A stretch of 64,000 nucleotides of DNA. It comes from Armatimonadota bacterium (GTDB taxonomy: Bacteria > Armatimonadota > Zipacnadia > Zipacnadales > VGFC01). The notes under the pieces were generated by a model. The model saw nothing but the letters and a program-made list of their open reading frames with translations. It ran no database searches and was not told the DNA's origin. Numbering within the stretch: the first letter of the stretch is position 1; the number at the start of each line of letters is the position of its first letter. Of this stretch, positions 12,020-52,243 are shown in pieces. The stretch is taken from contig VGFC01000001.1 in NCBI GenBank assembly GCA_016869045.1, positions 34,518 through 98,517 on the forward strand. The letters are read 5' to 3'. The position numbers were made by a program, and so were the translations under genes.

Positions 12020-12024
12020 CCGTG

Positions 12025-12077
12025 TGGGAGGGGCTTCAGCCCCGACTGTTCGCCCCTTGGGGCTGAAGCCCCTCCCA
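12025..12077. terminator. bidirectional hairpin between the convergent MTase and GIY-YIG genes
   Basis: tgggaggggcttcagcccc...ggggctgaagcccctccca forms a perfect 19-bp inverted repeat in the 80-nt gap between the two stop codons. Confidence 0.6.
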
Positions 12078-12098
12078 CAGTGCCAGCAGCGGCGGCCG

Positions 12099-19164: not shown

Positions 19165-19258
19165 CCCGGTTCGGCGTTCGGGGTTCAGGGTTCGGGGTTC
19201 CGGCCACGTCACGCAGGTCGTGAACTGCCAACGCCGAACCCCGAACGCCGAACCGCCA
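19165..19258. promoter_or_regulatory. long inverted repeat (19-bp perfect arms, ~50-nt spacer) upstream of the GHMP kinase gene / downstream of uxaA-like
   Basis: ggttcggcgttcggggttc at 19168-19186 pairs with gaaccccgaacgccgaacc at 19237-19255. The flanking ggttcgg repeats extend the stem. Confidence 0.5.
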
Positions 19259-21105: not shown

Positions 21106-22296
21106 TCACCGGGACTGTGCGATGACGACTCGGTCGATGCCACTGAGGTCCTTCAGGATGCGAGTGTCGAAGGTCGGCCAGGCGGTTGCGCACAGGTCCC
21201 GGACAGTTGCCGCCTGTCCGAGGCCGACCTCCAACGCGACCAGACGCACGTTCGGGAGGTACCGCGCGCATTCCGGGATCAGCCGCTCGTAGACGCCCGT
21301 CCCGGCCTCCCCCTCGCCCAGCCACGCAGGCTTCGGCTCGTGCGCGGCGACCTCGGGAGGCAACGCAGCCACGTCCCGCAGAGCCACGTAGGGCGGGTTC
21401 GACACCACGCACGTGATCTCCTCGGTGAGGCCTGCGGCGAGGACGGGGTCGAGGTCCGGGCCTTCAGCAAACCGGACGCGGTCGGGGAGGCCGAGCGCCT
21501 CGGCGTTCTCGCGCGCAAGGGCCAAGGCGTCTGACGAGATGTCCGTGAGGATGACCCGAGCCTCGGGTAGGAGTGCGGCAAGGGAAAGGCCGATGGCGCC
21601 GGTGCCAGCGCCGAGGTCGAGGATGGCCGTTGTGGGGGCGGACCCATGATTGTGTTGACAAAGGCGGTGTCGGGATTGGCATCCCGACCTACGAGCCACG
21701 TAGACGGTGTAGGAAGAGTGCTTCTCCTCGACGGAGTGGTTTCCCAACAAAATCCCATGTGTTCGCCCATGTCCGGCCGTTGTAGGGGCGGACACGTGAT
21801 TGTGTTGAGAAAGGCAGTGTCGGGACTGGAATCCCGACCTACGAGACACGTGCGGCCCGCAGGAGAGGCGTCCTTCCTCGACAGAGCCCTTCTTCAACAC
21901 AATCCCGTGCGTCCGCCCCGGCCCGGCCGAGGAGGGGCGGACACGTGGGTCCGCCCCTACAACGGCATTGACCAAGACCTCGGTCTCGGGGCGGGGGACG
22001 AGGGCGCGTTCGTCGCAGCGAAAGCGGAGCCCCATGAACTCGGTGTAGCCGGTCACGTAGGCGAGGGGGCGGCGAGAGGCGCGTTCGGCAGCGAGGGCCG
22101 AGAAACGGGCACGAACGGCTGTGTCCAGAGGGCTGCGCAGGAGCAGGTCGAGGCGCGTCAGGGGGACGTCGAGTGCGTGAGCGAGGAGGATGCGGGCGTC
22201 CGTGAGGGGGCTGTCCACTCCCGCGGCCTGGAGTCGGGCGACGGCCTCGTTCAGGGCATCGCGCACCGACGGGGCGTGGGTCATTGCCGTCACCAC
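21106..22296 (-). CDS. prmC: release-factor glutamine N5-methyltransferase PrmC/HemK carrying a ~110-codon in-frame insertion of palindromic MITE-like elements
   Basis: ILDLGAGTGAIGLSLA (motif I) and VVSNPPYV (NPPY) are intact, and the gene is immediately downstream of prfA. The region 21633-21960 between the N-domain and MTase domain is two tandem ~140-bp TIR-bounded elements, read through without stops. Confidence 0.8.
   Translation of the reverse strand: MVTAMTHAPSVRDALNEAVARLQAAGVDSPLTDARILLAHALDVPLTRLDLLLRSPLDTAVRARFSALAAERASRRPLAYVTGYTEFMGLRFRCDERALVPRPETEVLVNAVVGADPRVRPSSAGPGRTHGIVLKKGSVEEGRLSCGPHVSRRSGFQSRHCLSQHNHVSAPTTAGHGRTHGILLGNHSVEEKHSSYTVYVARRSGCQSRHRLCQHNHGSAPTTAILDLGAGTGAIGLSLAALLPEARVILTDISSDALALARENAEALGLPDRVRFAEGPDLDPVLAAGLTEEITCVVSNPPYVALRDVAALPPEVAAHEPKPAWLGEGEAGTGVYERLIPECARYLPNVRLVALEVGLGQAATVRDLCATAWPTFDTRILKDLSGIDRVVIAQSR
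21633..21960. mobile_element. two tandem MITE-like elements (~138 bp each, TIR GGGGCGGAC(C/A)C(A/G)TG(A)TTGTGTTGA...) plus a 30-bp solo palindrome, inserted in-frame in prmC
   Basis: Element 1 is ~21633-21770, element 2 ~21783-21919, each with terminal inverted repeats and an internal hairpin (gtcgggaYtggMatcccgac). A solo palindrome ggaggggcggacacgtgggtccgcccctac lies at 21931-21960. Confidence 0.75.
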
Positions 22297-22324
22297 CAGA
22301 TCGCGATCCGCGATACCAAGCCCA

Positions 22325-22378
22325 GGGCGCCATGAATGGCGCCCCTACACGGTCGGGCGCGATGAATCGCGCCCCTAC
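22325..22378 (-). repeat. REP-like doublet (reverse orientation)
   Basis: gggcgccatgaatggcgcccctac at 22325-22348 and gggcgcgatgaatcgcgcccctac at 22355-22378, between prmC and prfA. Confidence 0.9.
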
Positions 22379-22414
22379 GTGGGGACGGCTGGGACGGGAA
22401 CCGCGGGTTCCCAT

Positions 22415-23509
22415 TCAGCGGGCGGTCGAGTCGCCGACGGCGGCCTCGGCGAGCCGGCGCTCGTAGTCGGCCTTGGCCAGCGCGTCCAGCAGTTCGTCGA
22501 TGTTCCCCTGCAGGAGCGAGGGCAGGTTGTGCAGCGTCAGGCCGATCCGATGGTCCGTCAACCGATCCTGCGGCCAGTTGTAGGTTCGAAGCTTGTCGGA
22601 GCGGTCGCCGGACTTGACGTGCTGGCGGCGGGCAGCGGCCTCCTCCTCGCGGCGGGTCGCGAGCTGCAGGTCCAGGAGCTTGGAGCGAAGGATGCGGAAG
22701 GCCTGCTCGCGGTTCTGGTGCTGAGAGCGCTCGTTCTGGCAGGAGACGACGAGGCCGCTGGGCTTGTGGCGGACGCGGACGGCAGTGTCGTTCTTCTGGA
22801 CGTGCTGGCCGCCGGCGCCGGAGGCGCCGAAGGTCTGCACTTCGCAGTCGGCGGGATCGATCCGGACATCGACCTCCTCGGCCTCGGGGAGGACGGCGAC
22901 CGTCGCGGCCGAGGTGTGGATGCGCCCCTGGGACTCCGTGACCGGCACGCGCTGGACGCGGTGCACGCCGCTCTCGCTCTTCAGCCGGCCGTAGGCGCCC
23001 TTGCCATTGACCGCCAGGACGACCTCCTTGTAGCCGCCCATGCCGCTGGGGCTGCTGTCGAGCACCTCCGGCTTCCACCTCATCCGCTCGGCATAGGCGC
23101 TGTACATGCCGAGCAGGTCGGCCGCGAAAAGCGCCGCTTCCTCGCCGCCCGTGCCCGCGCGAATCTCGACGATGCAGTGCTTCTCATCGGCCTCGTCCTT
23201 GGGCACGAGGATGGCGAGCACGGCGGCCTCGGCGGTCTGGGCGCGCTGTTGGGCGCTCTCAAGCTCCTCCTGGTAGAACTCGCGCTCCTCGTCGTCGGCG
23301 GCGTCCGCCAGGCCCTTCTCAGCCTCCTCGGCGTCGGCGAGAGCCGCCCGGTAGGCGCGGACGTGCTCGACCGCCGTCGCCAACTCCGAGTGGCGGATGC
23401 TCGTGTCACGGAAGAGGTGCTGGTCGCCAATGACGGCCGGATCGGCCAGCCGGCGCTCCAGCTCGTGGTACTCCTCCTCAATGGCATCCAGGGCGGCGAC
23501 GTCGATCAA
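22415..23509 (-). CDS. prfA: peptide chain release factor 1
   Basis: GGQ motif in TFGASGAGGQHVQKNDTAVR. Conserved RF1 domains. Classic prfA-prmC gene order. Confidence 0.9.
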   Translation of the reverse strand: MIDVAALDAIEEEYHELERRLADPAVIGDQHLFRDTSIRHSELATAVEHVRAYRAALADAEEAEKGLADAADDEEREFYQEELESAQQRAQTAEAAVLAILVPKDEADEKHCIVEIRAGTGGEEAALFAADLLGMYSAYAERMRWKPEVLDSSPSGMGGYKEVVLAVNGKGAYGRLKSESGVHRVQRVPVTESQGRIHTSAATVAVLPEAEEVDVRIDPADCEVQTFGASGAGGQHVQKNDTAVRVRHKPSGLVVSCQNERSQHQNREQAFRILRSKLLDLQLATRREEEAAARRQHVKSGDRSDKLRTYNWPQDRLTDHRIGLTLHNLPSLLQGNIDELLDALAKADYERRLAEAAVGDSTAR

Positions 23510-23623
23510 CGGAGCGTCTCCTGTCTCGGGTCTCTGGTCTCACGTCTCGCGTCTGCAGTTCGTGGTCCGTGGTCTGCAGTCTGCGGTCTGCAGTCTGAGA
23601 GCGTGTATGAAAAGCACGGCCTG

Positions 23624-23757
23624 GGGCGTGATGAATCACGCCCCTACACTCGGGCACGATGAATCGTGCCCCTACACAACGGCGATTTACGGTCGTTTGT
23701 GACGTAGGGGCGCGATTCATCGCGCCCAGTCATGTAGGGGCGCCATTCATGGCGCCC
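23624..23757. repeat. REP-like quartet: two reverse-orientation units followed by two forward units (REPIN-like inverted arrangement)
   Basis: Units at 23624-23647(-), 23652-23675(-), 23704-23727(+), 23734-23757(+). The first two are sequence variants (gggcgtgatgaatcacgcccctac, gggcacgatgaatcgtgcccctac) with compensatory changes. Confidence 0.85.
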
Positions 23758-26897: not shown

Positions 26898-27581
26898 ATG
26901 GCGCAGCAACGTATCGCAGCACTCAACGACCGCGACCTCGTCCTGTGCGACTTCGACGGCACCGTCAGCGCGGAGGACACGGGCCTGCTCGTAGCCCGGG
27001 AGCTTCGGCTGGAGCGGTTCTTCGAGATCGAGGAGCGTTGGCGGCGGGGGGAGATCTCGTCGCGGGAGTGCCTCCGCGACCAGTGGCGGACCGTCGATCC
27101 GTCGCGGGCGGACTTCCGCGAGTTGATCGCGAACCTGGAAGTGAACCCGGGCTTCGAGGAACTCGTGGCGCTGACGGGGGTTCGGGGCGCGAGGCTGGTG
27201 ATCCTGAGCGATGGGCTGGACTACTACATCCGGATGACGTTGGAGCGGCTGGGGCTGGAACGTCTCGAGTACCGCGCGAACCATGCCGTGCTGCACGAGC
27301 ACCATGTCGAGCTGCAGTTCCCCTGCCCTGCGGACGCGTGCGACTTCTGCGGCAACTGCAAGACGCTGTGGCTGTTCGAGCTGAGGCCGGGGTTCGAGCG
27401 GCTGATCTACCTGGGAGACGGGATCTCGGACGGCTGCGCCTCGAGGTACTGCGATGTCGTGTTCGCGAAGGACCTGTTGGCGGGAATCTGCCGCGAGCGG
27501 GGTCAGGAGTTCGTGCCGTTCGAGACGCTCGAGGACGTCGTGCCGGTACTGCGGGACGGGAGTGTGCTTCGGGCGCGATGA
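26898..27581 (+). CDS. HAD-IB family phosphatase (MtnX-like)
   Basis: LVLCDFDGTVS (DxDGT) and LGDGISD motifs, plus CxxC pair CDFCGNC. The stop codon TGA lies inside a REP unit at 27571-27594. An alternative ATG exists at 26862. Confidence 0.6.
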   Translation: MAQQRIAALNDRDLVLCDFDGTVSAEDTGLLVARELRLERFFEIEERWRRGEISSRECLRDQWRTVDPSRADFRELIANLEVNPGFEELVALTGVRGARLVILSDGLDYYIRMTLERLGLERLEYRANHAVLHEHHVELQFPCPADACDFCGNCKTLWLFELRPGFERLIYLGDGISDGCASRYCDVVFAKDLLAGICRERGQEFVPFETLEDVVPVLRDGSVLRAR

Positions 27582-27624
27582 ATCGCGCCCCTACATGACC
27601 GGGCGCCATGAATGGCGCCCCTAC
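27571..27624 (-). repeat. REP-like doublet overlapping the 3' end of the HAD gene
   Basis: gggcgcgatgaatcgcgcccctac at 27571-27594 and gggcgccatgaatggcgcccctac at 27601-27624. The first unit encodes the last codons and the stop of the HAD CDS. Confidence 0.9.
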
Positions 27625-27690: not shown

Positions 27691-28704
27691 ATGAGGCGTC
27701 TGAAGGTGGGTATCATCGGCGCGGGTGTGATGGGAAGGCACTACGCGAAGGCCTTGCGCGAGTATGAGCGCGCGCAGTTGGTGGCGGTGTGCGACCTGAA
27801 CCACCAGGCGGCGCGGACGCTGGCGGGCGAGGAGGCAGAGGGCTTCGCGTCTGTGGGTGAGATGCTGGGCAGCGCGGAGATCGACGCGGCGGTGGTTGCC
27901 ACGCCGGACTTTGCGCACCGGGAGCCGGTCACGGCCTGCCTGCAGGCGGGGAAGGCGATCCTGTGCGAGAAGCCGCTGGCGACCACGGAGGAGGACATCG
28001 CGGCGATCGTGGAGGCGGTGGAGGGCGCCGGTTGCCCGTTCATGGTGAACTTCGGTAACCGCCACCGGCCGTCGGCCCTCAAGCTGCGCGAGGCGGTGCA
28101 AGAGGGGCGCGTGGGGACTCCGCAGTATGTGTACGTGCGGCTGAACGAGCGGTTGGGCAAGACGTTGACGATCCCGTGGCTGGCGCGGACCTCGCCGGTG
28201 TGGTTCCTGATGTCGCACTGCGCCGATCTCGTCTGCTGGTTGCTGGGGGACGAGTTCGCGGAGGTCACGGCGAGGGCGGCCTACGGCGCCGTCGCTCAAC
28301 ACGCCCCGGGCGTGCCGGACCTGTGCGTGTGCCTGGCGCCGATGAGGTCGGGCTGTCGCGCGGTGCTGGAGACGGCGTGGAACTTGCCGGAGGGCTTTGC
28401 ACCGAATATCGACTTCTTCGCGCAGGTCATCGGCGATGCGGGCGTGGTCCAGGCGGACCTCGTGCCGCATGACCTGAACGTCTACGACTCGCGCGCGGCC
28501 AGTGTGGATCACACCTTCGATGTGACGGGGCCGCGCGGCTATGGCGCGGGTTGGTGGCAGGAGAGCGTGCGGTACTTTGTCGATGCGGTTCTCGACGGCA
28601 AGCCGCTCCGGCCGACCGTGCACGAGGCGGCGCACATCAGCCGGACGTTGCTGGCGGTTGAGCGAGCGATCGCGTCGGGCCAGAGCGAGAACCCTGGGGT
28701 GTGA
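27691..28704 (+). CDS. Gfo/Idh/MocA family oxidoreductase
   Basis: ATG with GGGACGGAGG upstream. KVGIIGAGVMGRHYAKAL Rossmann motif and EKPLATTEEDIAAIV. Confidence 0.75.
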   Translation: MRRLKVGIIGAGVMGRHYAKALREYERAQLVAVCDLNHQAARTLAGEEAEGFASVGEMLGSAEIDAAVVATPDFAHREPVTACLQAGKAILCEKPLATTEEDIAAIVEAVEGAGCPFMVNFGNRHRPSALKLREAVQEGRVGTPQYVYVRLNERLGKTLTIPWLARTSPVWFLMSHCADLVCWLLGDEFAEVTARAAYGAVAQHAPGVPDLCVCLAPMRSGCRAVLETAWNLPEGFAPNIDFFAQVIGDAGVVQADLVPHDLNVYDSRAASVDHTFDVTGPRGYGAGWWQESVRYFVDAVLDGKPLRPTVHEAAHISRTLLAVERAIASGQSENPGV

Positions 28705-28710
28705 CATCGC

Positions 28711-31587
28711 ATGTCTCACCAGAGCATCCCCCGCCCTGAGCATCCCCGACCCGACTGGCAGCGCGGGAGCCGGGAGGGGCGCGATTGGATCAACCTCAAC
28801 GGGGTCTGGGAGTTCGACTTCGACCCGGAGGGCGTCGGCTGGGCTGAGGGCTGGCACGTGCCGCCGGGGAGACAGGTCCCCGGTGGGGTGTTCATGCTGC
28901 CCGGCGGGTTCGACCCAGCGGGCGTCGGCCGGAGCGAGGGGTGGGATGGGGGCCATGTCTACAGCAAGCGGATTGTCGTGCCCTTCGGGTGGGAGAGCCA
29001 CCTGGCGTGGGGCGGCGGAGAGCGGGCGAGCAATGAGGACTACTTCAGCCCGCAGGCCTTCATCGAGCCGGAGAAGGTGAGCCTGGAGAACTACCGCGAG
29101 GCCAGGCGGCATGAGACGGGGTGGTACCATCGGACCTTCGAGGTTCCGGCGCACTGGCAGAACGAGCGCGTCTACCTGTGCTGCGGGGCCATCGACTACT
29201 TCGCGCAGGTGTGGGTGAACGGGGCGCTGGTCGTGGCCGCGCTCAGCGGATACATGCCCTTCGAGGCGGACATCACCGAGCACGTGCAGTTCGGTGAAGA
29301 GAACCACGTGGTCATCCGCGCCCATGACCCGAACGACCACGAGCAGCAGCCGGTCGGGAAGCAGTCCCGCTGGTATGCACGGACCTCGGGCATCTGGCAG
29401 ACCGTGTGGCTGGAGCCCCGGAGCGCGGTGCACCTCGCGAGCGCGCGCTTTGACGCGGATATCGAGACCGGCGAGGTGACCTGTTCGATCCGGCTCAACC
29501 GCCCCCCCGAGGGCGACCTGGGCTTGCGGCTCGCGCTCTCGATGCCGCAGGGCGGCACGGCATACAACACGTGGGGGGCGAAGGCGGTCGCGGGCGCCAT
29601 GAATGGCGCCCCTACACAGTCGGGCGCGATGAATCGCGCCCCTACAGACGGCAGCGGGGCGGAGGCGATGGAGGCCGGCGAGGGCCCGCACACGACGCGC
29701 CTCATCGTCCACGAGCCTCGGCTCTGGTCGCCCGATGATCCGTACCTCTACCAGGTGGACCTGGAGCTGCTGGACGGCTCTGCGACGGTCGATCTGGTGA
29801 GCACCTACTTCGCCTTCCGCGAGGTCGCGATCAAGCCGCTGCCGGGCAAGACCACGCAGTACATCTACCTCAACGGCCGCCCAGTCTACCTCCTCGGCGC
29901 GCTGGACCAGTCGTTCAACCCGTGGGGTGTCTACACGTTCCCGTCGGATGAGGCGATCCGGCGGGACATCGAGCTCGCGCGGGAGGCGGGGTTCAACTTC
30001 CTGCGGATTCACATCAAGGCCGAGGACCCGCGCTTTCTGTACTGGGCGGACCGGCTGGGGATGCTGCTAATGGCAGACCTGCCGAACGTCGGCTACGAGG
30101 CCGCCGACTCAGCGCTGGCGCGGTCGCGCTGGGTGACCAACATGGTCCTGCAGATCAGGAGAGATCGACACCATCCCTCGATCGTCGCCTGGTGCCTGTT
30201 CAACGAGACCTGGGGCCTGGGCGGCAATGCCTACAAGGAGTTACCCGAGCGCCAGGAGTGGGTGCGCTCGAAGGTCGAGATAGCTCGCGATCTCGACCCC
30301 ACGCGGCCCATCGAGGACAACTCGGCCTGCCTGTATGACCACGTGGAGACGGACATCAACTCCTGGCACTTCTACCTCAACGACTACGCAGCGGCGAAGG
30401 CGCACATCGCGGAGGTGGTCGAGAAGACGTACCCGGGCTCGGGCTTCAACTACTGTCCGGGCTTCACGCAGAACCGCGAGCCGCTGCTGAACAGCGAGTA
30501 CGGCGGCATCTCGGCGCGAATGGGCGACCTGGATGTGTCCTGGTGCTTCCACTTCCTGACGAACGAGCTGCGGCTGCATGAGAAGATCTGCGGGTACGTC
30601 TACACCGAGCTGCAGGACATCGAGTGGGAGCGCAACGGGGTCTACAACTACGACCGCACGCCGAAGGAGTTCGGGTACGACATCCGAGAGCTGAACCGGC
30701 CCGACTTTCTCGCACTCGACGCGCCGCCGTGTCAGGTCGTGAGGCCCGGCGAGGAGGTCGTCGTCCCCGCCGTCTCCTCGCACTTCGGCCCCTTCGTCGG
30801 CGACCACGCGACGCTGGGCTGGAAGCTGGAACTGCTGGACCACACGGGCCGAATCGAGGAGTTCACCGGCTCGACGCGGCGGGTCCCGTTCCCGCGCTTC
30901 GCGGTGACGCCTGCGGGCAAGCTCGCCGTGCGGATGCCGGACTGCCCTGGGCTGGCGACGCTGCACGCGTGGCTGCAGACCGCAGACGGCGATCCCATCG
31001 CACGGAACTGGGTGCACTTCCACGTCGCGGACGAGGGCGTACATCCCGAAGGCATCGCACCGGTCTCGCTCGCGAGCTTCACGGGTGAGGGGATGCAGTG
31101 CTTCGAGGTCGAGGGGGTTCGGGAGGCGGTGTGGGTCGAAGGCGCGGGAGTGCTGTCTGCGAAATTGGGGACAGGCACCATTTTCCGAGACAACGCCCCT
31201 CGGAAAATGGTGCCTGTCCCCAGTTTCGCCCTCGTAGCGGAGCTCTCCTCGTGTCGGCCGGGCGGAGGAGGGAAGCAGACGGACGCGGAGACATGGCCGT
31301 CGCGAGTGCGCGTCTCGCTTGCGGGCGTCGAGCTGGGCTTGGTCGATCTGCCTGACCATCCGGCCGACAGCCGGGGCGTGCTGAGTCACCACTACGGGTT
31401 CGCGGGACGATACGGGGAGCTGGTTACGCTGCGCGTTCCGGCCGAGCGGGTCGGCGAAGCGCTCGACGCCCTGCGCGGCGGCGCGGAGCTGCGCTTCGAG
31501 GTGGACACGGACCTTCCGGGCGGGCTGAGCGTCTATGGTAGCAGGTCGGGCCGTTACCCAACAGGCCCGTACCTCCTGTTCCGTTGA
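28711..31587 (+). CDS. glycoside hydrolase family 2-like protein with two in-frame palindromic insertions
   Basis: GH2 sugar-binding-domain-like block WYHRTFEVPAHWQNERVYLCCGAIDYFAQVWVNG and TIM-barrel region. A REP doublet at 29592-29645 encodes AGAMNGAPTQSGAMNRAPT. A 71-bp palindrome at 31159-31229 encodes SAKLGTGTIFRDNAPRKMVPVPSFA. Confidence 0.6.
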   Translation: MSHQSIPRPEHPRPDWQRGSREGRDWINLNGVWEFDFDPEGVGWAEGWHVPPGRQVPGGVFMLPGGFDPAGVGRSEGWDGGHVYSKRIVVPFGWESHLAWGGGERASNEDYFSPQAFIEPEKVSLENYREARRHETGWYHRTFEVPAHWQNERVYLCCGAIDYFAQVWVNGALVVAALSGYMPFEADITEHVQFGEENHVVIRAHDPNDHEQQPVGKQSRWYARTSGIWQTVWLEPRSAVHLASARFDADIETGEVTCSIRLNRPPEGDLGLRLALSMPQGGTAYNTWGAKAVAGAMNGAPTQSGAMNRAPTDGSGAEAMEAGEGPHTTRLIVHEPRLWSPDDPYLYQVDLELLDGSATVDLVSTYFAFREVAIKPLPGKTTQYIYLNGRPVYLLGALDQSFNPWGVYTFPSDEAIRRDIELAREAGFNFLRIHIKAEDPRFLYWADRLGMLLMADLPNVGYEAADSALARSRWVTNMVLQIRRDRHHPSIVAWCLFNETWGLGGNAYKELPERQEWVRSKVEIARDLDPTRPIEDNSACLYDHVETDINSWHFYLNDYAAAKAHIAEVVEKTYPGSGFNYCPGFTQNREPLLNSEYGGISARMGDLDVSWCFHFLTNELRLHEKICGYVYTELQDIEWERNGVYNYDRTPKEFGYDIRELNRPDFLALDAPPCQVVRPGEEVVVPAVSSHFGPFVGDHATLGWKLELLDHTGRIEEFTGSTRRVPFPRFAVTPAGKLAVRMPDCPGLATLHAWLQTADGDPIARNWVHFHVADEGVHPEGIAPVSLASFTGEGMQCFEVEGVREAVWVEGAGVLSAKLGTGTIFRDNAPRKMVPVPSFALVAELSSCRPGGGGKQTDAETWPSRVRVSLAGVELGLVDLPDHPADSRGVLSHHYGFAGRYGELVTLRVPAERVGEALDALRGGAELRFEVDTDLPGGLSVYGSRSGRYPTGPYLLFR
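29592..29645 (-). repeat. REP-like doublet inside the GH2 coding sequence (in-frame)
   Basis: Units at 29592-29615 and 29622-29645. The reading frame is maintained across the insertion. Confidence 0.9.
31159..31229. repeat. 71-bp near-perfect palindrome (31-bp arms) inside the GH2 CDS
   Basis: gcgaaattggggacaggcaccattttccgag / ctcggaaaatggtgcctgtccccagtttcgc with an 11-nt loop. One arm mismatch. Confidence 0.85.
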
Positions 31588-31604
31588 CCCCCCGGAGGTG
31601 CGCC

Positions 31605-33794
31605 ATGCACGTCGTGGCTGTCCTCTCAGTCGCGTTCCCGCTGCTTGGCCACGCTCAGGAGAGCGACGTGCGGGGGCGGCTCGGCCGGCTCACGAAGGCC
31701 GTCGAGCGGATCGAGTCCAGTGCCGCCGACCGCGATTCGGACGTGTACCGCTCGAACATCCCGCTCGCGCGCTTCAAGTTGCGGAAGGCCCTCGCGCAGT
31801 GGCGCGCGCCGTTCGAGGGGGAGGTCGAGGCCCGAGACACCCTCGACGAGGCTGCGGAGGCCCTGGACCGCCACGACGCCGGCAAGGTGGCGTTTGAGGG
31901 CGAGACGGGCCATCTCGAACGCGCCTACTTCGCTCAGAACGACGATACGGCGCAACCGTACTTCGTCTACGTCCCCGAGGACTATCAGCCGAAGCAGCGT
32001 TGGCCGTTGATCGTCTTCCTCCACGGCTACGTGCCTTACACCAGCATCATCGACCCGTGGGTGCTGTACGAGGAGCACGAGCGGATCGCGGCGGACGCGG
32101 GGGCCCTGCTCTTGACGCCGTACGGGCGCCGGAACACGGACTTCCAGGGCGTGGGCGAGGTCGATGTCCTGGCCGCCATCGAGGAGACGAAGCGGTTCTA
32201 CTCGGTCGATCCGGACCGAATCTACCTGTGCGGGCCGTCGATGGGCGGCTACGGGACGTGGACCATCGCGCTGCGCTACCCCGGCATGTTCGCGGCGTGC
32301 GCGCCGATGTGCGGGCAGACGGACATGTTCGTGTGGTGGCCGTGGCCGCACCTCACCGCGCCGAAGTGCAAGCAGTTCCTCGGCGAGTGGGATAACCCCA
32401 TCGACCTCGCGCCCAATGCCGTCGGGCAGCGCTGCTTCCTGCAACACGGGGAGTTCGACCGCCTGATCCCCATCGAGCAGTCGCATATGATGCGCTGGGA
32501 GATGGACCGGCTGGGGACGCCGATCGAGTACTACGAGCACAAGGACGCGGACCACTTCATCTACCAGCACGAGCTGTGCTTCCAGAAGGCCTTCCCGTGG
32601 CTCGTTCAGCACAAGCTCGATCGCTGGCCGAAGCACGTGCGCCTGAAGAGCTACACGTACCGCTACGACACCGCGTTCTGGCTCCGGATTCTCGAGTACC
32701 AGCGGTGGAGCCAACCGGGCCAGATCGAGGCGACCGTCGAGGGCAACCGGATCAGTCTGACGAGCCAGAACGTGGCGCAGGTGCGGCTGTCGCTCTCGAA
32801 GGAGCTGCTGGACGTCGGCCAGCCGGTCACGGTCGTGTGCGGCGGCAAGGAGGTGTTCAGCGGGGTGCCCAAGGGCGAGGCGATTACGGTGAAGCTCGCC
32901 GAGCCGCTCACCCCGGAGAAGCCGGGCGCGATCCGCAAGCGGAAGGGCCTGTGCGGGCCGCTGGAGGATGTGCTCAACGGGCCGTTCGTCGTCGTGCCGG
33001 GCACCGCGGGCTCACAGGACCAGACGCAGGAACTGACGGACCGCGCGACCAAGTGGTGCGCGGAGTGGGACGCCTTCGCGGACGGCATCCCGCCTGTCAT
33101 GCTCGACACTGACGTCGATGAGAAGACCATCGCCGAGCGCAACCTCGTGCTGTTCGGCACGCCGGAGACGAACCAGGTCATCGCGGACATCGCCGACCGG
33201 CTGCCTGTGAAGATCGCGGAGGATGGCTACACTCTCGGCGGTCACACCTACACCGGCCCCGACCTCGGGCTGGCCCTCTGCTACCCGAATCCGAAGAACC
33301 CTGAGCGTTACGTTCTCATCTACGCCGGCGAAGACCCGGGCACCAACCTGGGGATCAACCACAAGCACGACCTGCTGCCCGACTACTTCATCTTCCGCGC
33401 GGGCGAGAAGAACGGCTACGACGACACTTACCCCCACCTGTGTGCCGGCTTCTTCGATCTCAACTGGGAGTTCGACCCGACGCTGATGGACGCCGAAGCC
33501 GCCCCTGCCGACCCCTACTTCGGCTCGGCGACCCTGGTCCGCGATGCCACGCTCACCCAGCCCGTGGCGAAGGTCACCAACGGCTACGCCGACCCGCTCC
33601 GCGTGACCATCGATCGCGGCGAGGAGGCAGTCATCCAGCCGGGCGAGTCCATCGAGCGGAGCCTCGAACCGGGACGGCACCTGTTCACGGGCGTCTGCCC
33701 GGACGGTGTCACACGCACCGAACAGCGGCTGATGGTACCGGAGTTCCGATACGAGTGGAGGGTCCCGGCGCTGTTCCCGGCGGGGTGGCCGTAA
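31605..33794 (+). CDS. secreted alpha/beta-hydrolase (S9 prolyl-oligopeptidase/esterase-like)
   Basis: ATG with GGAGGTG upstream. Signal peptide MHVVAVLSVAFPLLGHAQ. Nucleophile elbow LCGPSMGGYG (GxSxG). Confidence 0.6.
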   Translation: MHVVAVLSVAFPLLGHAQESDVRGRLGRLTKAVERIESSAADRDSDVYRSNIPLARFKLRKALAQWRAPFEGEVEARDTLDEAAEALDRHDAGKVAFEGETGHLERAYFAQNDDTAQPYFVYVPEDYQPKQRWPLIVFLHGYVPYTSIIDPWVLYEEHERIAADAGALLLTPYGRRNTDFQGVGEVDVLAAIEETKRFYSVDPDRIYLCGPSMGGYGTWTIALRYPGMFAACAPMCGQTDMFVWWPWPHLTAPKCKQFLGEWDNPIDLAPNAVGQRCFLQHGEFDRLIPIEQSHMMRWEMDRLGTPIEYYEHKDADHFIYQHELCFQKAFPWLVQHKLDRWPKHVRLKSYTYRYDTAFWLRILEYQRWSQPGQIEATVEGNRISLTSQNVAQVRLSLSKELLDVGQPVTVVCGGKEVFSGVPKGEAITVKLAEPLTPEKPGAIRKRKGLCGPLEDVLNGPFVVVPGTAGSQDQTQELTDRATKWCAEWDAFADGIPPVMLDTDVDEKTIAERNLVLFGTPETNQVIADIADRLPVKIAEDGYTLGGHTYTGPDLGLALCYPNPKNPERYVLIYAGEDPGTNLGINHKHDLLPDYFIFRAGEKNGYDDTYPHLCAGFFDLNWEFDPTLMDAEAAPADPYFGSATLVRDATLTQPVAKVTNGYADPLRVTIDRGEEAVIQPGESIERSLEPGRHLFTGVCPDGVTRTEQRLMVPEFRYEWRVPALFPAGWP

Positions 33795-33855
33795 GGCAAC
33801 GAAAACGGGAAGAGATTCGAGGACCAGAAGAACGACGAAGACGGCAACGGCCCCT
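33793..33855 (+). repeat. solo copy of the aaggcaacgaaa-gggaaga-attcgaag...gaagacgg repeat family (left boundary of lower-GC island)
   Basis: aaggcaacgaaaacgggaagagattcgaggaccagaagaacgacgaagacggcaacgg is ~80% identical to the repeat at 56271-56345 that flanks GxxExxY gene #2. Confidence 0.65.
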
Positions 33856-34066
33856 GAATCTGTGTAAGCCTCTCGTTTGTAGCAGGCGTATTCCCCAGTG
33901 ACTGCAGACACCATCGAGTTCGGTCGTGATGGCATCGTGAGCGATGACCGCGTTGGCCCCGTTCACCGCGAGACGGTGCACCTCGTGGACAGGGAATCCA
34001 CACCGGATGTACTTGCCGGGATCAGGCACAGGACGCCCTTCCGGGCCGCAGTGCCCAACGACGCCC

Positions 34067-35115: not shown

Positions 35116-35967
35116 TCACGTCAGGTTGTGTCCATACGCAGCCTTGATCTCCGCCTCGATCTCCAGGTACCTGTCCCGCACGGAGGTCCCGAACTCATGC
35201 CACCCGATGCCCAGTAGGTCAGTGGGTACAGCCGTCCCCCTCCTATAGAGCACGCAGGTGCGGCTTCGTCCGAGTTTGCCATAGAACCAACCGACCTCGA
35301 ACAGCACGTTGGGCCGCATCTGCCTGTAACTGGCGTCCGCCGTCTCCACGCTATCGTCTGGCGTCCAGATCGCGAAGGCGTACCCGCATCCGCCACCGAC
35401 CTGCTCGAGCTTCTCGATCAAGGTCCTCCCCTGATGTGCTTCCCGATCCAGGAGCACAGGCGTCAGCGAACCGAAGCGCTCGCCGATCAGCTCCTTCAGC
35501 TCCAGAGCTGCCGTTCGGTCGTGACCATGGACGATGAAGACCCCCGTCGAGGGAGCCGTGGTTGCTGCGCTGGCGGTTGGCACGCTCTGGGCCACCTCTG
35601 GGACGAGGTCCAGTCTGCTCCTGATGGACTCCAGTTCCCGGATGTTCTCGCGAAGCCCACGCACCAGTAGGGCAGCCTCGGCCGCCACGGACGGGATCCC
35701 GCTGACAGCGACCCCCCCGAAGCCGACTCCCGCGTAAACCCGGTACACTTCGTCGGTCGTGTATAGCTCTCGGAGTAGGTCGTAGTTGTACTCATTCCAT
35801 GTCCGGCGTTCGGCCTCCACAGCATCCAAGTCCGCATTGCTGCGTATAGCTTCTGCCCGGCTCGCGATCTCCTGCCCGCACTCGATCCGGGCCGTCAGCT
35901 TCTGCTGCGCATCTTCCCGGCTGCACGTCAGCCGTGGTCTCTCCGGCGGCGTCTTGGGCTTCGGCAT
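35116..35967 (-). CDS. protein with C-terminal TIR-like nucleotide-binding domain (COG4271/PF10137-type) and unrecognised ~145-aa N-terminal domain
   Basis: C-terminus VFIVHGHDRTAALELKELIGERFG...GRTLIEKLEQ...YAFAIWTPDD...RQMRPNVLFEVGWFYGKLGRSRTCVLYRRGTAVPTDLLGIGWHEF matches the family consensus VFIVHGHD...RaRQNVifElGyFiGkLGReRV...PSDl.G. GGAGG RBS upstream. Confidence 0.65.
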   Translation of the reverse strand: MPKPKTPPERPRLTCSREDAQQKLTARIECGQEIASRAEAIRSNADLDAVEAERRTWNEYNYDLLRELYTTDEVYRVYAGVGFGGVAVSGIPSVAAEAALLVRGLRENIRELESIRSRLDLVPEVAQSVPTASAATTAPSTGVFIVHGHDRTAALELKELIGERFGSLTPVLLDREAHQGRTLIEKLEQVGGGCGYAFAIWTPDDSVETADASYRQMRPNVLFEVGWFYGKLGRSRTCVLYRRGTAVPTDLLGIGWHEFGTSVRDRYLEIEAEIKAAYGHNLT

Positions 35968-36107
35968 GTGTTCCTACACCTCCCCCCTGGCGTAGCCATC
36001 AACCAGGGCCGGATGCACTCCATAGGACCGACTCCCCCCTGCCGGAGCGGCGTCGTCGCTCCCTTGGCCGGCGACCCCCCACGCGAACCGCCGCGACGCA
36101 GCGCGGT

Positions 36108-44412: not shown

Positions 44413-44442
44413 GTAGGGGCGGACCCACGTGTCCGCCCCTAC
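44413..44442. repeat. solo 30-bp palindrome of the MITE/TIR family (gtaggggcggacccacgtgtccgcccctac)
   Basis: Perfect palindrome identical in type to the element termini in prmC. Lies between the ABC ATPase stop and the permease start. Confidence 0.8.
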
Positions 44443-45392: not shown

Positions 45393-47856
45393 CGCCCGCC
45401 TCCTCTCCCCGCGTACTCGACATCGGCCCACGCGAGGCCGTAACCGACGGCAGCCGTCCGGCCGGTAGAGGGTTCCTGGACCCCCGGCGCCACTCGGACA
45501 AGGCCGGGCGGCCACAGGATGAACCGGCCTGGCTCGGGAACCTCCAGAGCGAACGTGGGGTCGGCCTTCCAGGTCAGTGCTTTCCACCGGTGGCGTTGCC
45601 AGTCGTACACGCTGATCGCGGTGGGCTCCGCCTCCGGCCCTCCTCCGCGTGGGGGCAGTTGTCCTTGGATGACGAGGCGTTGGTGCTGAGGTCGGGCACC
45701 CTCGATCGCCAGCAACAGCTCACGCGAGCTGCTTGGTTCGTCGTCGGGCGGGCCAGCGCCGGGCGGTCCGGGCATCCCTCCGCCCTGTTCGTTTGAGGCG
45801 TACGCAGCCAGCCACGCGGTGCGCCGGTGGCTCGTCGTGTCGAACGCGCCGCCGACGGGCACGACGAGGTCCGGTCCGCGGATGGTCGTCCTCAGCGGCG
45901 CCAGGTACAGGTGCGCGCCCCTGACCGCGTGGCGGCCCCGGAGTCCCGGCGGCTGCACCAGCGTCTCCCCCCAGCCCAGCAGGAAGGGCCCCGAGGCCCT
46001 GCGCGTCAGGCTCCAGATGGTCTCCTCAGCCTGCTCCCAACGAGTGCTCTCGGGACGTAGCGGCCAGAGGGCCTCGTCCAGCCAGCTGCCCGGACCCGTG
46101 AGATTGTAGATGCGCGAGAGCTGGTACTCCGAGAGGGCCGGGGGCCGAGCTTCAGCGTCAGGGCCTTGGTCTCGCCCGCCGCGACGTCGCCGACCGCGAC
46201 ATGGTTCCACTTGTGGATCAAGTAGCAGTCCCGCAGCGCGAAGGGCAGGCGGTTGGCGACCGTCCCGGTCAATCCATCCGCGCCGATGGACAGCTCTCCC
46301 TCTACCGTGCCCTGCGGCTCGAAGGCCGTCTCCTCGAACGCCCGCATGGACCAGCGCTCGACCCGCACGTTCGACAGCGAGGCCGGCTCGCCGACGGAGA
46401 CGACCGTCGAGGGCCAGCCGCCCTGCCCGAGGCCGCCGTTGTACGGCGTGAACTCGCGGAACGCCGGCTGAGGGCGGCCGAACTGGAGGTCATACGTCCG
46501 CGTGCCAGGCGAGAAGACGCCGAAAGCACCCAGAGAGGCGACGCCCTCGGTGCCGATGGACGTGACGTTCGCGGTCTGGTGCACGAGGATCGGGAACGGC
46601 GAGTGCACGACGACGGCCGCGACCATCAGCCCCAGCACGAAGACCAGGACGATGGCGGGGGTCGTGACGACCACCAACTCCTTCTTGCGCATGACGCCCA
46701 CGACGGCGCAGTTGAGCGGCCCGGCCACGATCACGAAGGCGAGGAGCACGATGAACAACGGCAACCCGGTGTTCGGAAGCCGGCTGTGGGCCGGCACCAT
46801 CGACCACGGGATTGACTGGCGGGACGCCGGTCCGGTGCGGCTCCCGCGGAGCGCCTTCGCCCAGAACCCCTCCCGGAGTCTCGTGCGGCTCGGCCAGTCC
46901 GGAACTTCGCTCCACGCCGGGTCTACGGTGAGGCCCCGGACGGCGCCCATCCCGACGGGGTGCTCGAAGGCCAGGACATGCCCACCCGCGGAGGCCAGCA
47001 CCTCCGACGCCGGCACGCGCACCTCCACGATCTGCGTGAGGGCGCCGGCGATCGGCTTGCGGGAGAACAGCCCGAGCGCGTCGCCCAACCCGTCTGCCGG
47101 GCGGCGTCCCACGACGGTTGCCCCGGCGAAGCGAGCCACCTCCGGCGACGCCGCATTGCGGGCGAGGAAGGGCGCAGTCAACACGAGCAGTCCGCCCGTG
47201 GCCGTCCAGCGCCGGATCGCGCCCCAGGCAGCCGGCGGCAGTTGCCCCACGTCGATGTCCCCCAGGACGATGGCAGCCGCCGCGTCGTAGGCGCGGGCAT
47301 CCGTGGGCGCCTCGCTCGGGGTCAGGAGGTGCATATCCGTCCGGGGCAGGGCGGAGAAGGGACGGTCCTTCTCACTCTCCGCCTGCTTCTGGGAGGGTGT
47401 CACGAACACGAGCGTCAAGCCGTCGCGGCGCGGCCCCCAACCCGGATTGGTCACCTGCTCGAACACCACTTCCTTCCCCCGCAGAACCTGGACGCGCACA
47501 CCGTAGGGGCTCTCGAGGAGTTGCACGACCAGACGCACGGTCGTCGTTCCCTGAGGGAACTCGGCCGGAAACGTGTACACGTCTCCGCGCGACCAGGGAT
47601 CATCGGGAGACGACCAGCCGGGGACCTGCGCCCGCACGGTGCCGCTGAAGGCCGAGCCCTCGTTGGTGACCGTGAGTGTCAGAGGGTTCCACCAGCCGGC
47701 GACAGCGACGCCCCCGAAGCCGAGAGACGTGTTGCCGGAGAGCTGGGCGTGCGCCGACGCGCACAAGAGGTGGAGCGTCACGAGGCCGAGGAGTAGACTG
47801 TACGCGCCGAGACGACTGCGGGGCTTCACGAGGCCGTGTCCGCGTTCCCCCACCAT
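45389..47856 (-). pseudogene. large (about 820 aa) secreted/membrane hypothetical protein upstream of the ABC-2 transporter, interrupted by a frameshift at a C5 run near 46128
   Basis: Track ORFs 46006..48069 and 45389..46210 join at ggcccccggccc: ...GETKALTLKLGP | ALSEYQLSRIYNLTG... Signal peptide MVGERGHGLVKPRSRLGAYSLLLGLVTLHLLCASAHA with GGAGGA RBS. Could be a sequencing error. Confidence 0.5.
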
Positions 47857-48047
47857 ACGGCCCCCTTCCTCCGTTGACGGGTGGGATGCGAGGCCGAGCT
47901 CTGCCACGAAGCACGCCGCACGGAAGCTGCCACGAGGGCTGCGGCTTCCGCTCGTCCCAAGAAACGCGCGACGCACCGGAAGTCCTCGCTCGCGGCACAG
48001 ATTCCTGGGAGGCCTCCTGTGCTTCCATCGCGAATAGCCCGCCCCGC

Positions 48048-48869
48048 ATGAGGTACCGTCTGCTGGCAATCGACCTCGACCATACGCTCGTCCGCGGCCT
48101 GGCCGGAGTGTCGCCCGCGAACCGGGAGGCGCTGGCGCTCGCGCAGGCCGCGGGCTGCCGCGTGGTGTTCTGCACGGGGCGCGGGCGGTACACCACGCTC
48201 CCCGTCGCGGAGGAACTCGGCCTGGCGGACGGGCCGCACATCCTGTTCAACGGGGCGGCGATCTTCTCCACGCTCCGGCAGCCGCCGGGTGAGGTGCTGC
48301 TGCTCGAGCGCGAGGCCGTGGAACACTGTCTGCAGCTCGCGGGCGATTGCGACCTCGGGGTATCGGGCTTCGAGGATCCCCGACAGGGGGACCTGGTGCG
48401 CCTGGCGCGGCCCAACGCGGCCCTGCACCGCTGGGCGCAGGCCAATCGCGACCGCGCGGTGTGGGTGGATGGCCTGGAGGACATCCTGGAACGGCCGATG
48501 GTGGCGTTCCTGTTCTGGGGGGCGGAAGAGGACGTGCGCCAACTGCAGCAGCGGCTCGGCGATCCGCCCGGCGTGGCGCCGCCGCGCGTGGCGACGAGCA
48601 AGGTGCTCGACAGCTGGGTGCTCGAGCTGTCGGCGCCAGGCGGCACCAAGGGCGCCGCCTTGGCTCGCCTGGCCGAGCGCCTTGGGGTGCCGCGCGAGGA
48701 GATCGTGGCCATCGGAGACTCCCACCCCGACATCTGCATGATCGAGTATGCGGGCCTGGGTGTCGCCGTGGGAGATGGCGTCGAGGAGCTGCAGGCGGTG
48801 GCCGACTACATCGGGCCGACGTGCGAGGACGACTGCGTGGCGGATGTGATCCGGCGCTTCATACTCTAG
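48048..48869 (+). CDS. Cof-type HAD-IIB hydrolase
   Basis: MRYRLLAIDLDHTL (DxDxT) and C-terminal IGDSHPD. Confidence 0.7.
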   Translation: MRYRLLAIDLDHTLVRGLAGVSPANREALALAQAAGCRVVFCTGRGRYTTLPVAEELGLADGPHILFNGAAIFSTLRQPPGEVLLLEREAVEHCLQLAGDCDLGVSGFEDPRQGDLVRLARPNAALHRWAQANRDRAVWVDGLEDILERPMVAFLFWGAEEDVRQLQQRLGDPPGVAPPRVATSKVLDSWVLELSAPGGTKGAALARLAERLGVPREEIVAIGDSHPDICMIEYAGLGVAVGDGVEELQAVADYIGPTCEDDCVADVIRRFIL

Positions 48870-48892
48870 GAGCGTGTACGGGAAGCGTGGGC

Positions 48893-48946
48893 GGGCGCCA
48901 TGAATGGCGCCCCTACATGATCGGGCGCGATGAATCGCGCCCCTAC
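48893..48946 (-). repeat. REP-like doublet
   Basis: Units at 48893-48916 and 48923-48946, between the Cof hydrolase and ADH genes. Confidence 0.9.
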
Positions 48947-48965
48947 ACGACGGGGGAGATAGACC

Positions 48966-51815: not shown

Positions 51816-52138
51816 AGGCGATCCAGAACGAGCACCTGTGCCTGACGCAGCTCTGCTTCCTCGAGACCATTCAGGCGCTCATCGAGCGCGGCGGAGGTAG
51901 CCGGGGCGCGTATGTCATCCTCGACGACGAGGGCGACCTATGGGTCGAGACGAAGCGCGGCCGGGAGCTTCAGCACCGCAGCGAGAACGAGGCGCTGCGC
52001 AAGGAGATTCTCGAGACGAAGGTCAACGACGACGGGAGCCTCGACGTGTACCCGGCCGAGGTGAGGCCGCTGCCCGAGGATGACTCGTGGTACGAGACGA
52101 CGTGGCGCGAGTGGCAGGAGAAGCGGGTCTACGGATGA
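51812..52138 (+). CDS. small hypothetical protein, translationally coupled (GTG overlapping upstream stop)
   Basis: The ctGTGAagg overlap means the start overlaps the upstream stop. About 108 aa, acidic. Confidence 0.35.
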   Translation: MKAIQNEHLCLTQLCFLETIQALIERGGGSRGAYVILDDEGDLWVETKRGRELQHRSENEALRKEILETKVNDDGSLDVYPAEVRPLPEDDSWYETTWREWQEKRVYG

Positions 52139-52150
52139 CGACCTAACCAC

Positions 52151-52190: not shown

Positions 52191-52243
52191 ACGGAACGAC
52201 CACGGACGCACCGGGACATGCACAGCGGCGAGAGTACGGGGAG

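Follow-up and report, generated by a model that had tools for sequence, protein, structure and literature searches.

Two unrelated palindromic repeats read in frame within a GH2-family glycoside hydrolase gene of an Armatimonadota bacterium

The stretch of DNA analysed here (the window, 64 kb) comes from an uncultured Armatimonadota bacterium of a lake metagenome and contains a gene of glycoside hydrolase family 2 (GH2), the reading frame of which runs through two palindromic elements that have no sequence in common. The gene and the features at the two sites are as follows.

28711..31587, + strand: GH2-family glycoside hydrolase gene, host of the inserts; the ORF is intact and encodes 958 amino acids
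29587..29670, + strand: full extent of the lineage-specific sequence at site 1; 84 nt or 28 codons, V293-M320
29592..29645, + strand: REP doublet at site 1; two direct (head-to-tail) GTAG-type units, 29592-29615 and 29622-29645
29575..29586 (left, GGGGCGAAGGCG) and 29656-29667 (right, GGGGCGGAGGCG), + strand: imperfect 12-nt direct repeat around the REP doublet, read from the sequence
31159-31189 and 31199-31229, + strand: arms of the 71-bp palindrome at site 2; 31 nt each, 97% complementary, separated by a 9-nt loop
31162..31227, + strand: codons that replace the ortholog loop at site 2; 22 codons, K818-F839, delimited by codon alignment

Assignment of the host gene to GH2 is based on three Pfam domains, Glyco_hydro_2_N (PF02837, 60.5 bits), Glyco_hydro_2 (PF00703, 39.7 bits) and Glyco_hydro_2_C (PF02836, 49.2 bits), all above their curated cut-offs; that is, the N-terminal sugar-binding, Ig-like and TIM-barrel domains exceed the thresholds of the family. 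Sequence matches in the PDB include a beta-D-galactofuranosidase (9j6n, E = 6.6e-65) and a beta-glucuronidase (7xyr), and Foldseek superposes the model of the protein on 7xyr with a TM-score of 0.80. No NCBIfam equivalog reached its cut-off, and hence no substrate specificity was assigned. N498-E499 (FNETWG) and E596 (NSEYGG) are unchanged across 20/20 homologs in the protein alignment; from general knowledge of GH2 and clan GH-A we take the former to be the putative acid/base (NE motif) and the latter the putative nucleophile. The order of genes around the locus (HAD, Gfo/Idh/MocA, GH2, S9 peptidase) is conserved with the orthologs.

At site 1, both REP units match GGGCGCSATGAATSGCGCCCCTAC on the + strand with 0 mismatches. 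The doublet consists of a C-type unit GGGCGCCATGAATGGCGCCC and a G-type unit GGGCGCGATGAATCGCGCCC, each followed by CTAC, so that on the - strand each unit reads GTAG plus a hairpin, which folds with an 8-bp stem and a 4-nt loop. The doublet is free of stops in 4/6 frames and encodes the peptide GAMNGAPTQSGAMNRAPT. The segment that distinguishes this gene from its orthologs exceeds the 54-nt doublet, as it is composed of GTCGC, the doublet and 25 further nucleotides. It is missing from 4/4 orthologs in the codon alignment and also from the closest protein orthologs, where it appears as a gap of 28 amino acids, and it sits in the Ig-like sandwich domain. Judging from its sequence, the imperfect 12-nt repeat could represent a duplicated target or a scar left by repair; apart from it, no target-site duplication, and in particular no clean one, was found at either GH2 site.

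The palindrome at site 2 lies in the C-terminal beta-rich region. Its arms differ from perfect complementarity in one position, which is T:G on the sense strand (A:C on the antisense strand), and its predicted folding energy is -38.4 kcal/mol as DNA (z = -10.5) and -64.7 kcal/mol as RNA (z = -11.1). It is free of stops in 6/6 frames and encodes AKLGTGTIFRDNAPRKMVPVPSFA, and a predicted peptide of this region is GTGTIFRDNAPRK. Here 22 codons (66 nt) stand in place of about 14 variable ortholog codons (~42 nt), so the net change is +24 nt or +8 amino acids; the orthologs have a shorter, poorly conserved and non-palindromic loop. Sequence at site 2 was thus exchanged rather than simply inserted, and the junctions there lack a target-site duplication, the host sequence having been replaced. 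The GC content of the segment is 0.55 and its GC3 0.64, against 0.68 and 0.88 for the whole gene; the difference in GC3 fits a foreign or recent origin.

An earlier note on this DNA, based on the letters alone, had described both elements as in-frame insertions in the GH2 gene, unrelated to each other. Coordinates, units, arms and peptides (given there as AGAMNGAPTQSGAMNRAPT and SAKLGTGTIFRDNAPRKMVPVPSFA) were all reproduced within the 958-amino acid frame, and the orthologs do lack the palindromic elements in the codon as well as the protein alignments. As to the two insertions, site 1 bears out that description, although the inserted segment is larger than the doublet, whereas at site 2 the substitution described above takes the place of a 71-nt insertion.

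The syntenic orthologs used for comparison share 61-81% identity with the GH2 protein, and four of them were taken into the codon alignment. A closely related allele without the inserts was not found, the nearest ortholog being 76-81% identical. The alignments also disclose a segment that had not been mentioned before.

28864..28947, + strand: third segment present only in this gene; 28 amino acids, P52-D79, in both protein and codon alignments

In this third segment, part of the preceding FDPEGVGWAEGW is duplicated (the direct repeats, 28819-28854 and 28909-28944, are spaced by 90 nt); a further 15 residues are novel and include a small hairpin, CCGGGGA-GACAGG-TCCCCGG. In the AlphaFold model of the protein (mean pLDDT 73, which is moderate; 20-sequence alignment), residues 57-85, 290-318 and 827-832 have pLDDT <50, each lies between beta-strands, and they match the three segments. 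At site 1 the strands are 283-288 and 327-332, and at site 2 the segment connects strand 813-819 with strand 839-846. The model places the inserts in low-confidence loops; several unrelated stretches of it likewise have pLDDT <50, and low pLDDT in these predicted loops reflects poor conservation or prediction and is not proof of surface exposure.

That a single gene has three separate indels specific to its lineage could mean that it is decaying and that the inserts are tolerated since it is dispensable, their in-frame state being a coincidence before pseudogenisation. The contig offers some support for such damage, as a FAD-binding gene (50085-52135) carries a 1-nt frameshift, which indicates either some gene damage or a sequence error. 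The GH2 gene itself, however, has an intact ORF of 958 codons with the GC3 of typical coding sequence, it retains the putative catalytic residues along with over 200 columns that are invariant in the homolog alignment, and its dN/dS against the orthologs (0.21-0.22) matches the value obtained among the three closer orthologs that lack the inserts (0.20-0.21). Furthermore, each of the three indels has a length divisible by 3, for which the estimated chance is about 1 in 27 if unselected. Decay is therefore very improbable. The gene is apparently still under purifying selection; the insert-bearing enzyme has presumably retained its activity, and the inserts are presumably translated as part of it. 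Three metagenomes, each assembled independently, contain the gene in 100% identical form, as does the MAG; one locus that overlaps the window (L090) differs from it solely downstream of the GH2 gene, and the inserts show no strain polymorphism.

Both palindromes belong to multi-copy repeat families. For the REP element, 14 units in 7 clusters were counted in the window, whereas 0 were expected from 100 shuffles. All 14 terminate in CCCCTAC (GTAGGGG when read from the opposite strand), they form short stem-loops within the range of the GTAG-type class (stem 5-13 bp, loop 2-20 nt), and the pairing of the stem is kept between units by compensatory C/G, GT/AC and CA/TG changes. The repeats are dispersed and mainly extragenic: over 117 metagenome contigs carry the unit, and just 8 viral ones do; six of the seven window clusters are intergenic, and among 72 evaluable clusters on other metagenome contigs 2 lie inside a recognisable gene and 70 do not. 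The REP was found in frame in AcrB and GlnE genes. Some long open frames run over other REP clusters (e.g. 48293-49504, 47829-50009 and 22181-23659); as they have neither a Pfam match nor coding GC3, they are not regarded as genes.

These distributions bear on a more general claim, namely that palindromic elements of this genome have a propensity to insert in frame into proteins. One of the examples given for it, prmC, is real and stronger than had been claimed, for it contains an in-frame insert of about 110 amino acids that is composed of units of two further GTAG REP families. The other example, a palindrome at 50677-50703 in the FAD oxidoreductase gene, adds little: it is single-copy, has arms of 9 bp and lies within a segment of +6 amino acids, and the ortholog P0125 has a segment of equal length without the palindrome sequence. 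With most copies lying outside recognisable genes, in the window and elsewhere, the claim of a general propensity is only partly supported.

The arrangement of the units is also characteristic. In 6/7 window clusters the two units share one strand at a spacing of 28-30 nt, and the cluster 23624-23757 alone joins two direct doublets in opposite orientation. REPINs, reportedly described by Bertels and Rainey in 2011, are said to consist of two REPs inverted so as to form one long hairpin. The repeats in the window share with the REPIN/RAYT system the GTAG-tagged hairpins in doublets, the many copies and the compensatory variation of stems; they differ in that the direct units do not form a REPIN and that the window has no RAYT gene, neither RAYT/Y1_Tnp nor any other transposase having been detected among the ~30 window ORFs scanned against Pfam.

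The closest precedent is the survey of GTAG REPs by Di Nocera, De Gregorio and Rocco (2013, BMC Genomics 14:522; PMC3733652). In the sections of that paper relevant here, GTAG REPs are mostly intergenic, multi-copy stem-loops, of which a minority lies inside known genes as dimers or groups encoding 20-30 amino acids; some genes are hit twice, flexible linkers or loops are suggested as the place of the peptides, and a REP sometimes gives a flanking ORF its stop codon. The elements in the window resemble them in the short stem-loop, the terminal GTAG, the copy number and the mostly intergenic location, and the REP at 27571 likewise provides the TGA of the HAD gene. They differ in that Armatimonadota are not among the phyla named in these sections, and in that the units of a dimer follow each other head-to-tail, C-type alternating with G-type, while most dimers in the survey are head-to-head or tail-to-tail. 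The consensus GTAG-GGGCGC[G/C]ATTCAT[C/G]GCGCCC and the peptides were not found in the text or supplements of PMC3733652.

The 71-bp palindrome belongs to a dispersed hairpin family with the core GGGGACAGGCACCATTTTC, many copies of which are hairpin pairs. The short form of the core is given on the next line.

Hairpin family core, short form: GGGGACAGGCACC

The core occurs in 84 genomic stretches of reference genomes, counted without the window's own GH2 palindrome, compared with about 17 expected by chance (an estimate for an 18-mer). It is bordered by AAAAT/ATTTT, the second arm often has two conserved A:A mismatches (GAAAATGGAGCCAGTCCCC), and flanks of the arms such as GAAATTGGGG are common to the GH2 palindrome and three other loci (L014, L036 and L075). 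Near-identical cores are present in genomes labelled as about eight phyla (Firmicutes, Actinomycetota (Collinsella), Nitrospirota, Hydrogenedentota, Planctomycetota, Acidobacteriota, Pseudomonadota and Armatimonadota), and the isolate genome of Desulfoscipio geothermicus alone has about 25 loci. A UreD gene carries the hairpin twice, in frame, read as GTGTIF...KMEPVP in the same frame as in GH2. The two families were not seen together, as no REP unit occurs in the 88 loci examined. A phage origin of the hairpin was considered and rejected, the core being absent from IMG/VR.

Membership in these families also bears on whether the palindromes could have been formed in place, by a template-switch or inverted-duplication error of repair, or could be artefacts of assembly. 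The outermost bases of site 2 (GCG...CGC) coincide with bases conserved in the orthologs, the net change at that site is small, and the palindrome is single-copy within the 64-kb window, all of which would agree with formation in place. Both sequences nevertheless match many-copy families, arm flanks included, and neither arm resembles orthologous sequence; an in-place origin is largely ruled out by family membership. An assembly artefact is excluded by the identical gene in the three independent metagenome assemblies and the MAG. Taken together, these two explanations have hardly any probability left.

With regard to its class, the 71-bp element has several properties of a MITE: it is small, with long terminal inverted repeats, no coding capacity and multiple dispersed copies, and it is readable within the host ORF, as are the bacterial MITEs creating in-frame fusions that are reviewed in PMC10969869. 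Unlike MITEs, it has no target-site duplication and no parent IS or transposase was identified (none lies around L016 and L075, among the few loci checked); the copies examined closely adjoin ordinary genes, as REPs or terminator-like hairpins do, and the core is common to the many phyla listed above. It is possible, though we hold it only tentatively, that the palindrome represents an undescribed family of hairpin elements that spreads horizontally. If this is so, spread across phyla would call for either an unknown mobilising enzyme of broad host range or recognition of the core by a conserved host factor, and as the hairpin is open in all six frames new protein loops could arise from it repeatedly (as in GH2, and twice in UreD). 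In the full-text literature, the core sequences of both elements were found only in unrelated human primer or miRNA papers.

The explanation that we consider quite likely is that two unrelated, non-autonomous palindromic repeats landed in a functional GH2 gene and persisted there. The first would have been a GTAG-tagged REP doublet, of a class whose mobilisation is attributed to RAYT tyrosine transposases, and would have added the 84 nt in the Ig-like domain; the second would have been a MITE-like or REP-like long hairpin that exchanged ~42 nt for 66 nt, presumably by insertion plus deletion. The mobilising enzymes are likewise presumed. Each element would have fallen into a length-variable loop between beta-strands, without an in-frame stop and with a length change that is a multiple of 3. 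The in-frame copies are most plausibly the few that purifying selection has spared: their state results from the removal of every disruptive copy by selection, not from a mechanism that targets the frame, and their survival was helped by the number of open frames in both elements. The inserted peptides are probably disordered or loop passengers, neutral or mildly deleterious, and not adaptations.

Could the inserts nevertheless have been co-opted, either as hairpins in the mRNA (a site for RNase III or another endonuclease, a ribosome pause, or a stabiliser) or as loops that give the enzyme a new property? The extreme stability of the RNA hairpin, the sole arm mismatch that remains a wobble pair on the sense strand, the fixation of identical inserts in three metagenomes and the same frame of the hairpin in GH2 and UreD are in favour of this, and REPs as control elements at the RNA level are discussed in parts of PMC3733652. 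On the other hand, a single wobble position is compatible with chance and the inserts are conserved in no ortholog. The hairpin does not resemble an intrinsic terminator, as it is followed by CCTCGTAGCGG without a terminator-like tail, and neither terminator-like sites nor a promoter were predicted in 28400-31900. A search of Rfam for a known RNA family (E <= 1, over 28000-32500) returned only sub-threshold look-alikes of miRNA hairpins. UreD, AcrB, GlnE and prmC, which are not related to one another, also carry inserts, and at positions that do not correspond; this argues for passengers. Co-option is therefore improbable.

The survival of such passengers in a gene under selection is a phenomenon already known in Rickettsia and other bacteria, of which the GH2 case is a new example. 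The Rickettsia palindromic elements (RPE) of Ogata et al. (2000), as presented in the relevant passages of PMC3733652 and PMC10969869, are found in frame in many unrelated housekeeping genes, the host proteins are functional, and it is argued that neither fold nor function of these proteins is disturbed by the RPE positions. The resemblance, palindromic repeats read in frame inside genes, is only functional: in those accounts the RPE-1 type is ~100-150 bp long and confined to Rickettsia and relatives, and the host here is a free-living lake bacterium instead of a reduced intracellular genome. The GH2 gene adds a well-controlled case from Armatimonadota, a phylum that has hardly been studied, to the short list of genomes that tolerate REP-like or MITE-like palindromes in housekeeping or enzyme genes, with one gene hit by two unrelated families and with controls from orthologs, synteny, selection and several assemblies. 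The main finding raises no new question, and the cross-phylum hairpin family may merit separate study. For annotation, the peptides GAMNRAPT, GRDESRPY, VGARFIAP and GTGTIF...KMVPVP in predicted proteins should be taken as flags of repeat DNA, since most ORFs with such peptides are spurious or have a mis-called start.

The gene at 28711-31587 on the plus strand, in a window of 68% GC, is an intact ORF of 958 amino acids, the product of which has the same sequence as NCBI 'MAG: hypothetical protein FJX75_00250 [Armatimonadetes bacterium]' and matches Pfam Glyco_hydro_2_N, Glyco_hydro_2 and Glyco_hydro_2_C, each above threshold. The nearest solved structures are the GH2 beta-D-galactofuranosidase 9j6n (E = 6.6e-65) and the beta-glucuronidase 7xyr, and against the latter the predicted fold reaches a target-normalised TM-score of 0.80. 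An earlier note had placed two palindromic elements in frame within this gene, a REP doublet (29592-29645) and a 71-bp palindrome (31159-31229); the coordinates and both quoted peptides were reproduced, and the observation is confirmed. An assembly artefact is unlikely, because all 2877 nt of the gene are 100% identical across three JGI metagenomes, each assembled independently, one of which shows 1.4% divergence immediately downstream. A pseudogene is likewise unlikely: dN/dS between the query and three closer orthologs is 0.21-0.22, like the 0.20-0.21 among those insert-free orthologs (0.06-0.09, with dS saturated, in pairs with the most distant ortholog, L004), and the putative catalytic residues N498-E499 and E596 are invariant across 20 homologs. 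Metagenome contig L090 has an identical GH2 gene, and in the comparison with window positions 31750-33950 the neighbouring S9 peptidase gene is ~7% divergent, which points to a strain-level recombination boundary where the GH2 gene ends.

The closest homologs (879-924 amino acids, 61-81% identity in protein alignment A1) share the neighbourhood HAD - Gfo/Idh/MocA - GH2 - S9 peptidase with the query. Three segments are found only in the query in both protein and codon alignments:

Segment (i), amino acids 52-79, 28864-28947: 28 residues, made up of a partial second copy of FDPEGVGWAEGW and 15 novel residues (direct-repeat family D1)
Segment (ii), amino acids 293-320, 29587-29670: 84 nt containing the REP doublet
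Segment (iii), amino acids 818-839: 22 palindrome-encoded codons replacing ~14 poorly conserved ones, net +24 nt

The repeats of segment (i) lie at 28819-28854 and 28909-28944, and its novel residues include the hairpin CCGGGGA-GACAGG-TCCCCGG. Segment (ii) is bracketed by an imperfect 12-nt repeat, GGGGCGAAGGCG / GGGGCGGAGGCG, and the loop at this place varies in length in other homologs too (P0007, P0020). Since the alignments show segment (ii) in the query only, it is a clean insertion into a length-variable loop. Segment (iii) could have arisen either by an insertion that removed host sequence or by one into an already shorter loop; GC3 is 0.64 in the hairpin segment and 0.88 in the whole gene. 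In the AlphaFold model (mean pLDDT 73) the three segments coincide with stretches below 50 (57-85, 290-318 and 827-832), each between beta-strands. Several stretches without inserts also fall below 50, and low pLDDT is no proof of surface exposure.

Each unit of the doublet is an exact match to GGGCGCSATGAATSGCGCCCCTAC, and 14 units of this type are observed in the window against 0 expected. On the minus strand the unit reads GTAG + GGGCGC[G/C]ATTCAT[C/G]GCGCCC, with a stem of 8 bp and a loop of 4 nt, and in the variants GGGCGTGATGAATCACGCCC and GGGCACGATGAATCGTGCCC paired changes preserve the stem. The seven window clusters consist of doublets in which a C-type and a G-type unit share one orientation, 28-30 nt apart, and their flanks are unrelated except for a loosely conserved leader of ~25 nt in some. 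REPINs are inverted REP pairs. The window doublets are therefore not REPINs, because their units have the same orientation. The layout is that of the GTAG-tagged REPs described by Di Nocera et al. (2013; PMC3733652), and the window consensus was not found in the text and supplements of that paper. The REP 24-mer is present on >117 metagenome contigs from many environments.

By GC3 frame analysis and Pfam, six of the seven window clusters are intergenic and the GH2 copy is the only intragenic one. The intergenic clusters include:

3' of the gene at 7398-8573
Between prfA and prmC
Upstream of prfA
27571-27624: doublet separating the HAD-phosphatase gene from the Gfo/Idh/MocA gene
Upstream of the zinc alcohol dehydrogenase gene

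The doublet at 27571-27624 provides the TGA stop of the HAD-phosphatase gene (27579-27581). At the ortholog locus L003 the HAD-phosphatase and Gfo/Idh/MocA genes overlap, without a spacer.

The 71-bp palindrome, single-copy within the window, has arms of 31 nt with one mismatch and a loop of 9 nt; its folding energy is -38.4 kcal/mol for the DNA (z = -10.5) and -64.7 kcal/mol for the RNA. Its 18-nt core, GGGACAGGCACCATTTTC, occurs in 84 stretches of the species-representative genome collection, against our estimate of ~17 chance occurrences for an 18-mer. Hairpin pairs account for many of the 84, with loops between 5 and ~50 nt long. The hosts include Desulfoscipio geothermicus (~25 loci; isolate DSM 3669), Collinsella spp., a Nitrospiraceae MAG, Hydrogenedentota, Planctomycetota, Thermoanaerobaculia, Steroidobacteraceae and an Armatimonadota MAG. 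The window palindrome and other copies have arm flanks like GAAATTGGGG...CCCCAATTTC in common, and the second arm is often GAAAATGGAGCCAGTCCCC, giving two conserved A:A mismatches. The copies examined closely adjoin ordinary genes, just 5' or 3', and no transposase was seen near them. Rfam, full-text literature and viral contigs gave no match to the palindrome or its core. The spread of the GGGGACAGGCACCATTTTC hairpin family (L005-L088, e.g. L016, L021, L036 and L028), the arms of which are nearly the same across genomes that carry labels of about eight phyla, is the least expected by-product of this analysis, and no published description of it was found. Four more long palindromes of different sequences (arms 29-34 nt; GGCGGGCAAGAATGCCCGCC and GGGAGGGGCTTCAGCCCC are examples) are apparently intergenic, at 2526-2593, 3664-3751, 12015-12087 and 19167-19255. 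Many distinct hairpin repeat families are present in this genome.

How general are in-frame copies? The prmC gene (21106-22290, minus strand), also named in the earlier note, does carry in-frame palindromes: ~110 extra residues between the PrmC_N and methyltransferase domains are built from one GTAG-GGGCGGAC REP and two copies of an GTAGGTCGGGAT-containing unit (insert at 21650-21975). Elsewhere, REP units were sampled at 80 metagenome loci with 92 clusters, 72 of which had enough flank for judging, and only two of the 72 lie in frame inside a recognisable gene. The copies in prmC and elsewhere are:

21934-21960: GTAG-GGGCGGAC REP in prmC, with the same sequence as the intergenic one at 44413-44439
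21819-21842 and 21669-21692: units containing GTAGGTCGGGAT[T/G]CCA[G/A]TCCCGAC in prmC
L117, 1299-1322: single REP unit in frame in an AcrB-family RND transporter gene, read as PGAMNRAPT
L136, 1172-1225: REP doublet in frame in GlnE, VGAPFMAPDQVGARFIAP, on a contig of the lake project that also yielded the window
L028 (JBIOZI010000361.1), 2790-2895: two tandem long hairpins, 63 nt each, in frame in the UreD gene of a Steroidobacteraceae MAG and giving GTGTIFAEPKMEPVP in the frame used in GH2

Intragenic palindrome copies are real and recurrent in this genome, yet a small minority. The general propensity for in-frame insertion claimed earlier is only partly supported: intragenic copies recur in GH2 and prmC, but most clusters lie outside recognisable genes. 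Four of the six frames of the REP doublet and all six of the hairpin are stop-free, and selection on frame and position (loops, linkers) would suffice for the observed in-frame copies.

According to Di Nocera et al. (PMC3733652), GTAG and CGTC REPs lie inside known genes of several species, more than half of such inserts are dimers or groups encoding 20-30 amino acids, some genes are hit twice, and the inserts may be neutral, sited in flexible linkers or loops. The classic case of palindromes within genes, as presented there and in PMC10969869, is that of the Rickettsia RPEs. The GH2 case fits the former description and is a further example of an already described phenomenon; it stands apart from the REPs covered there by its host phylum, its head-to-tail doublets and the presence of both a REP and a long hairpin unrelated to it within a single gene.

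The FAD_binding_2 gene (~50085-52135, plus strand) proved a weak example of the same: its 27-bp palindrome (50677-50703) is single-copy with arms of 9 bp, and lies within a +6-residue segment where ortholog P0125 has equal length and a different sequence. The gene also has a query-only insert of 13 amino acids (51153-51191) with the hairpin CATGAGCG-AGGC-CGCTCATG. An apparent 1-nt deletion at 51800-51815 (CTGTGAAGG, leading to TGA where orthologs, of 665 amino acids, read ...GLVKAIQ...) splits it over two frames, the last 108 codons lying in the +2 frame up to 52135; this break would be either a real frameshift/pseudogene or an assembly error. Directly after the FAD_binding_2 gene begins the first of two paralogous small PD-(D/E)XK nuclease genes (52139-52621 and 56271-56795; Pfam PDDEXK_3, E = 7e-42 and 3e-40), which are wedged among metabolic and transport genes. 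A defence-associated CAP12-PCTIR_TIR gene (~35116-35973, minus strand), seen via locus L089, lies 3' of the S9 peptidase gene, beside unannotated small ORFs.
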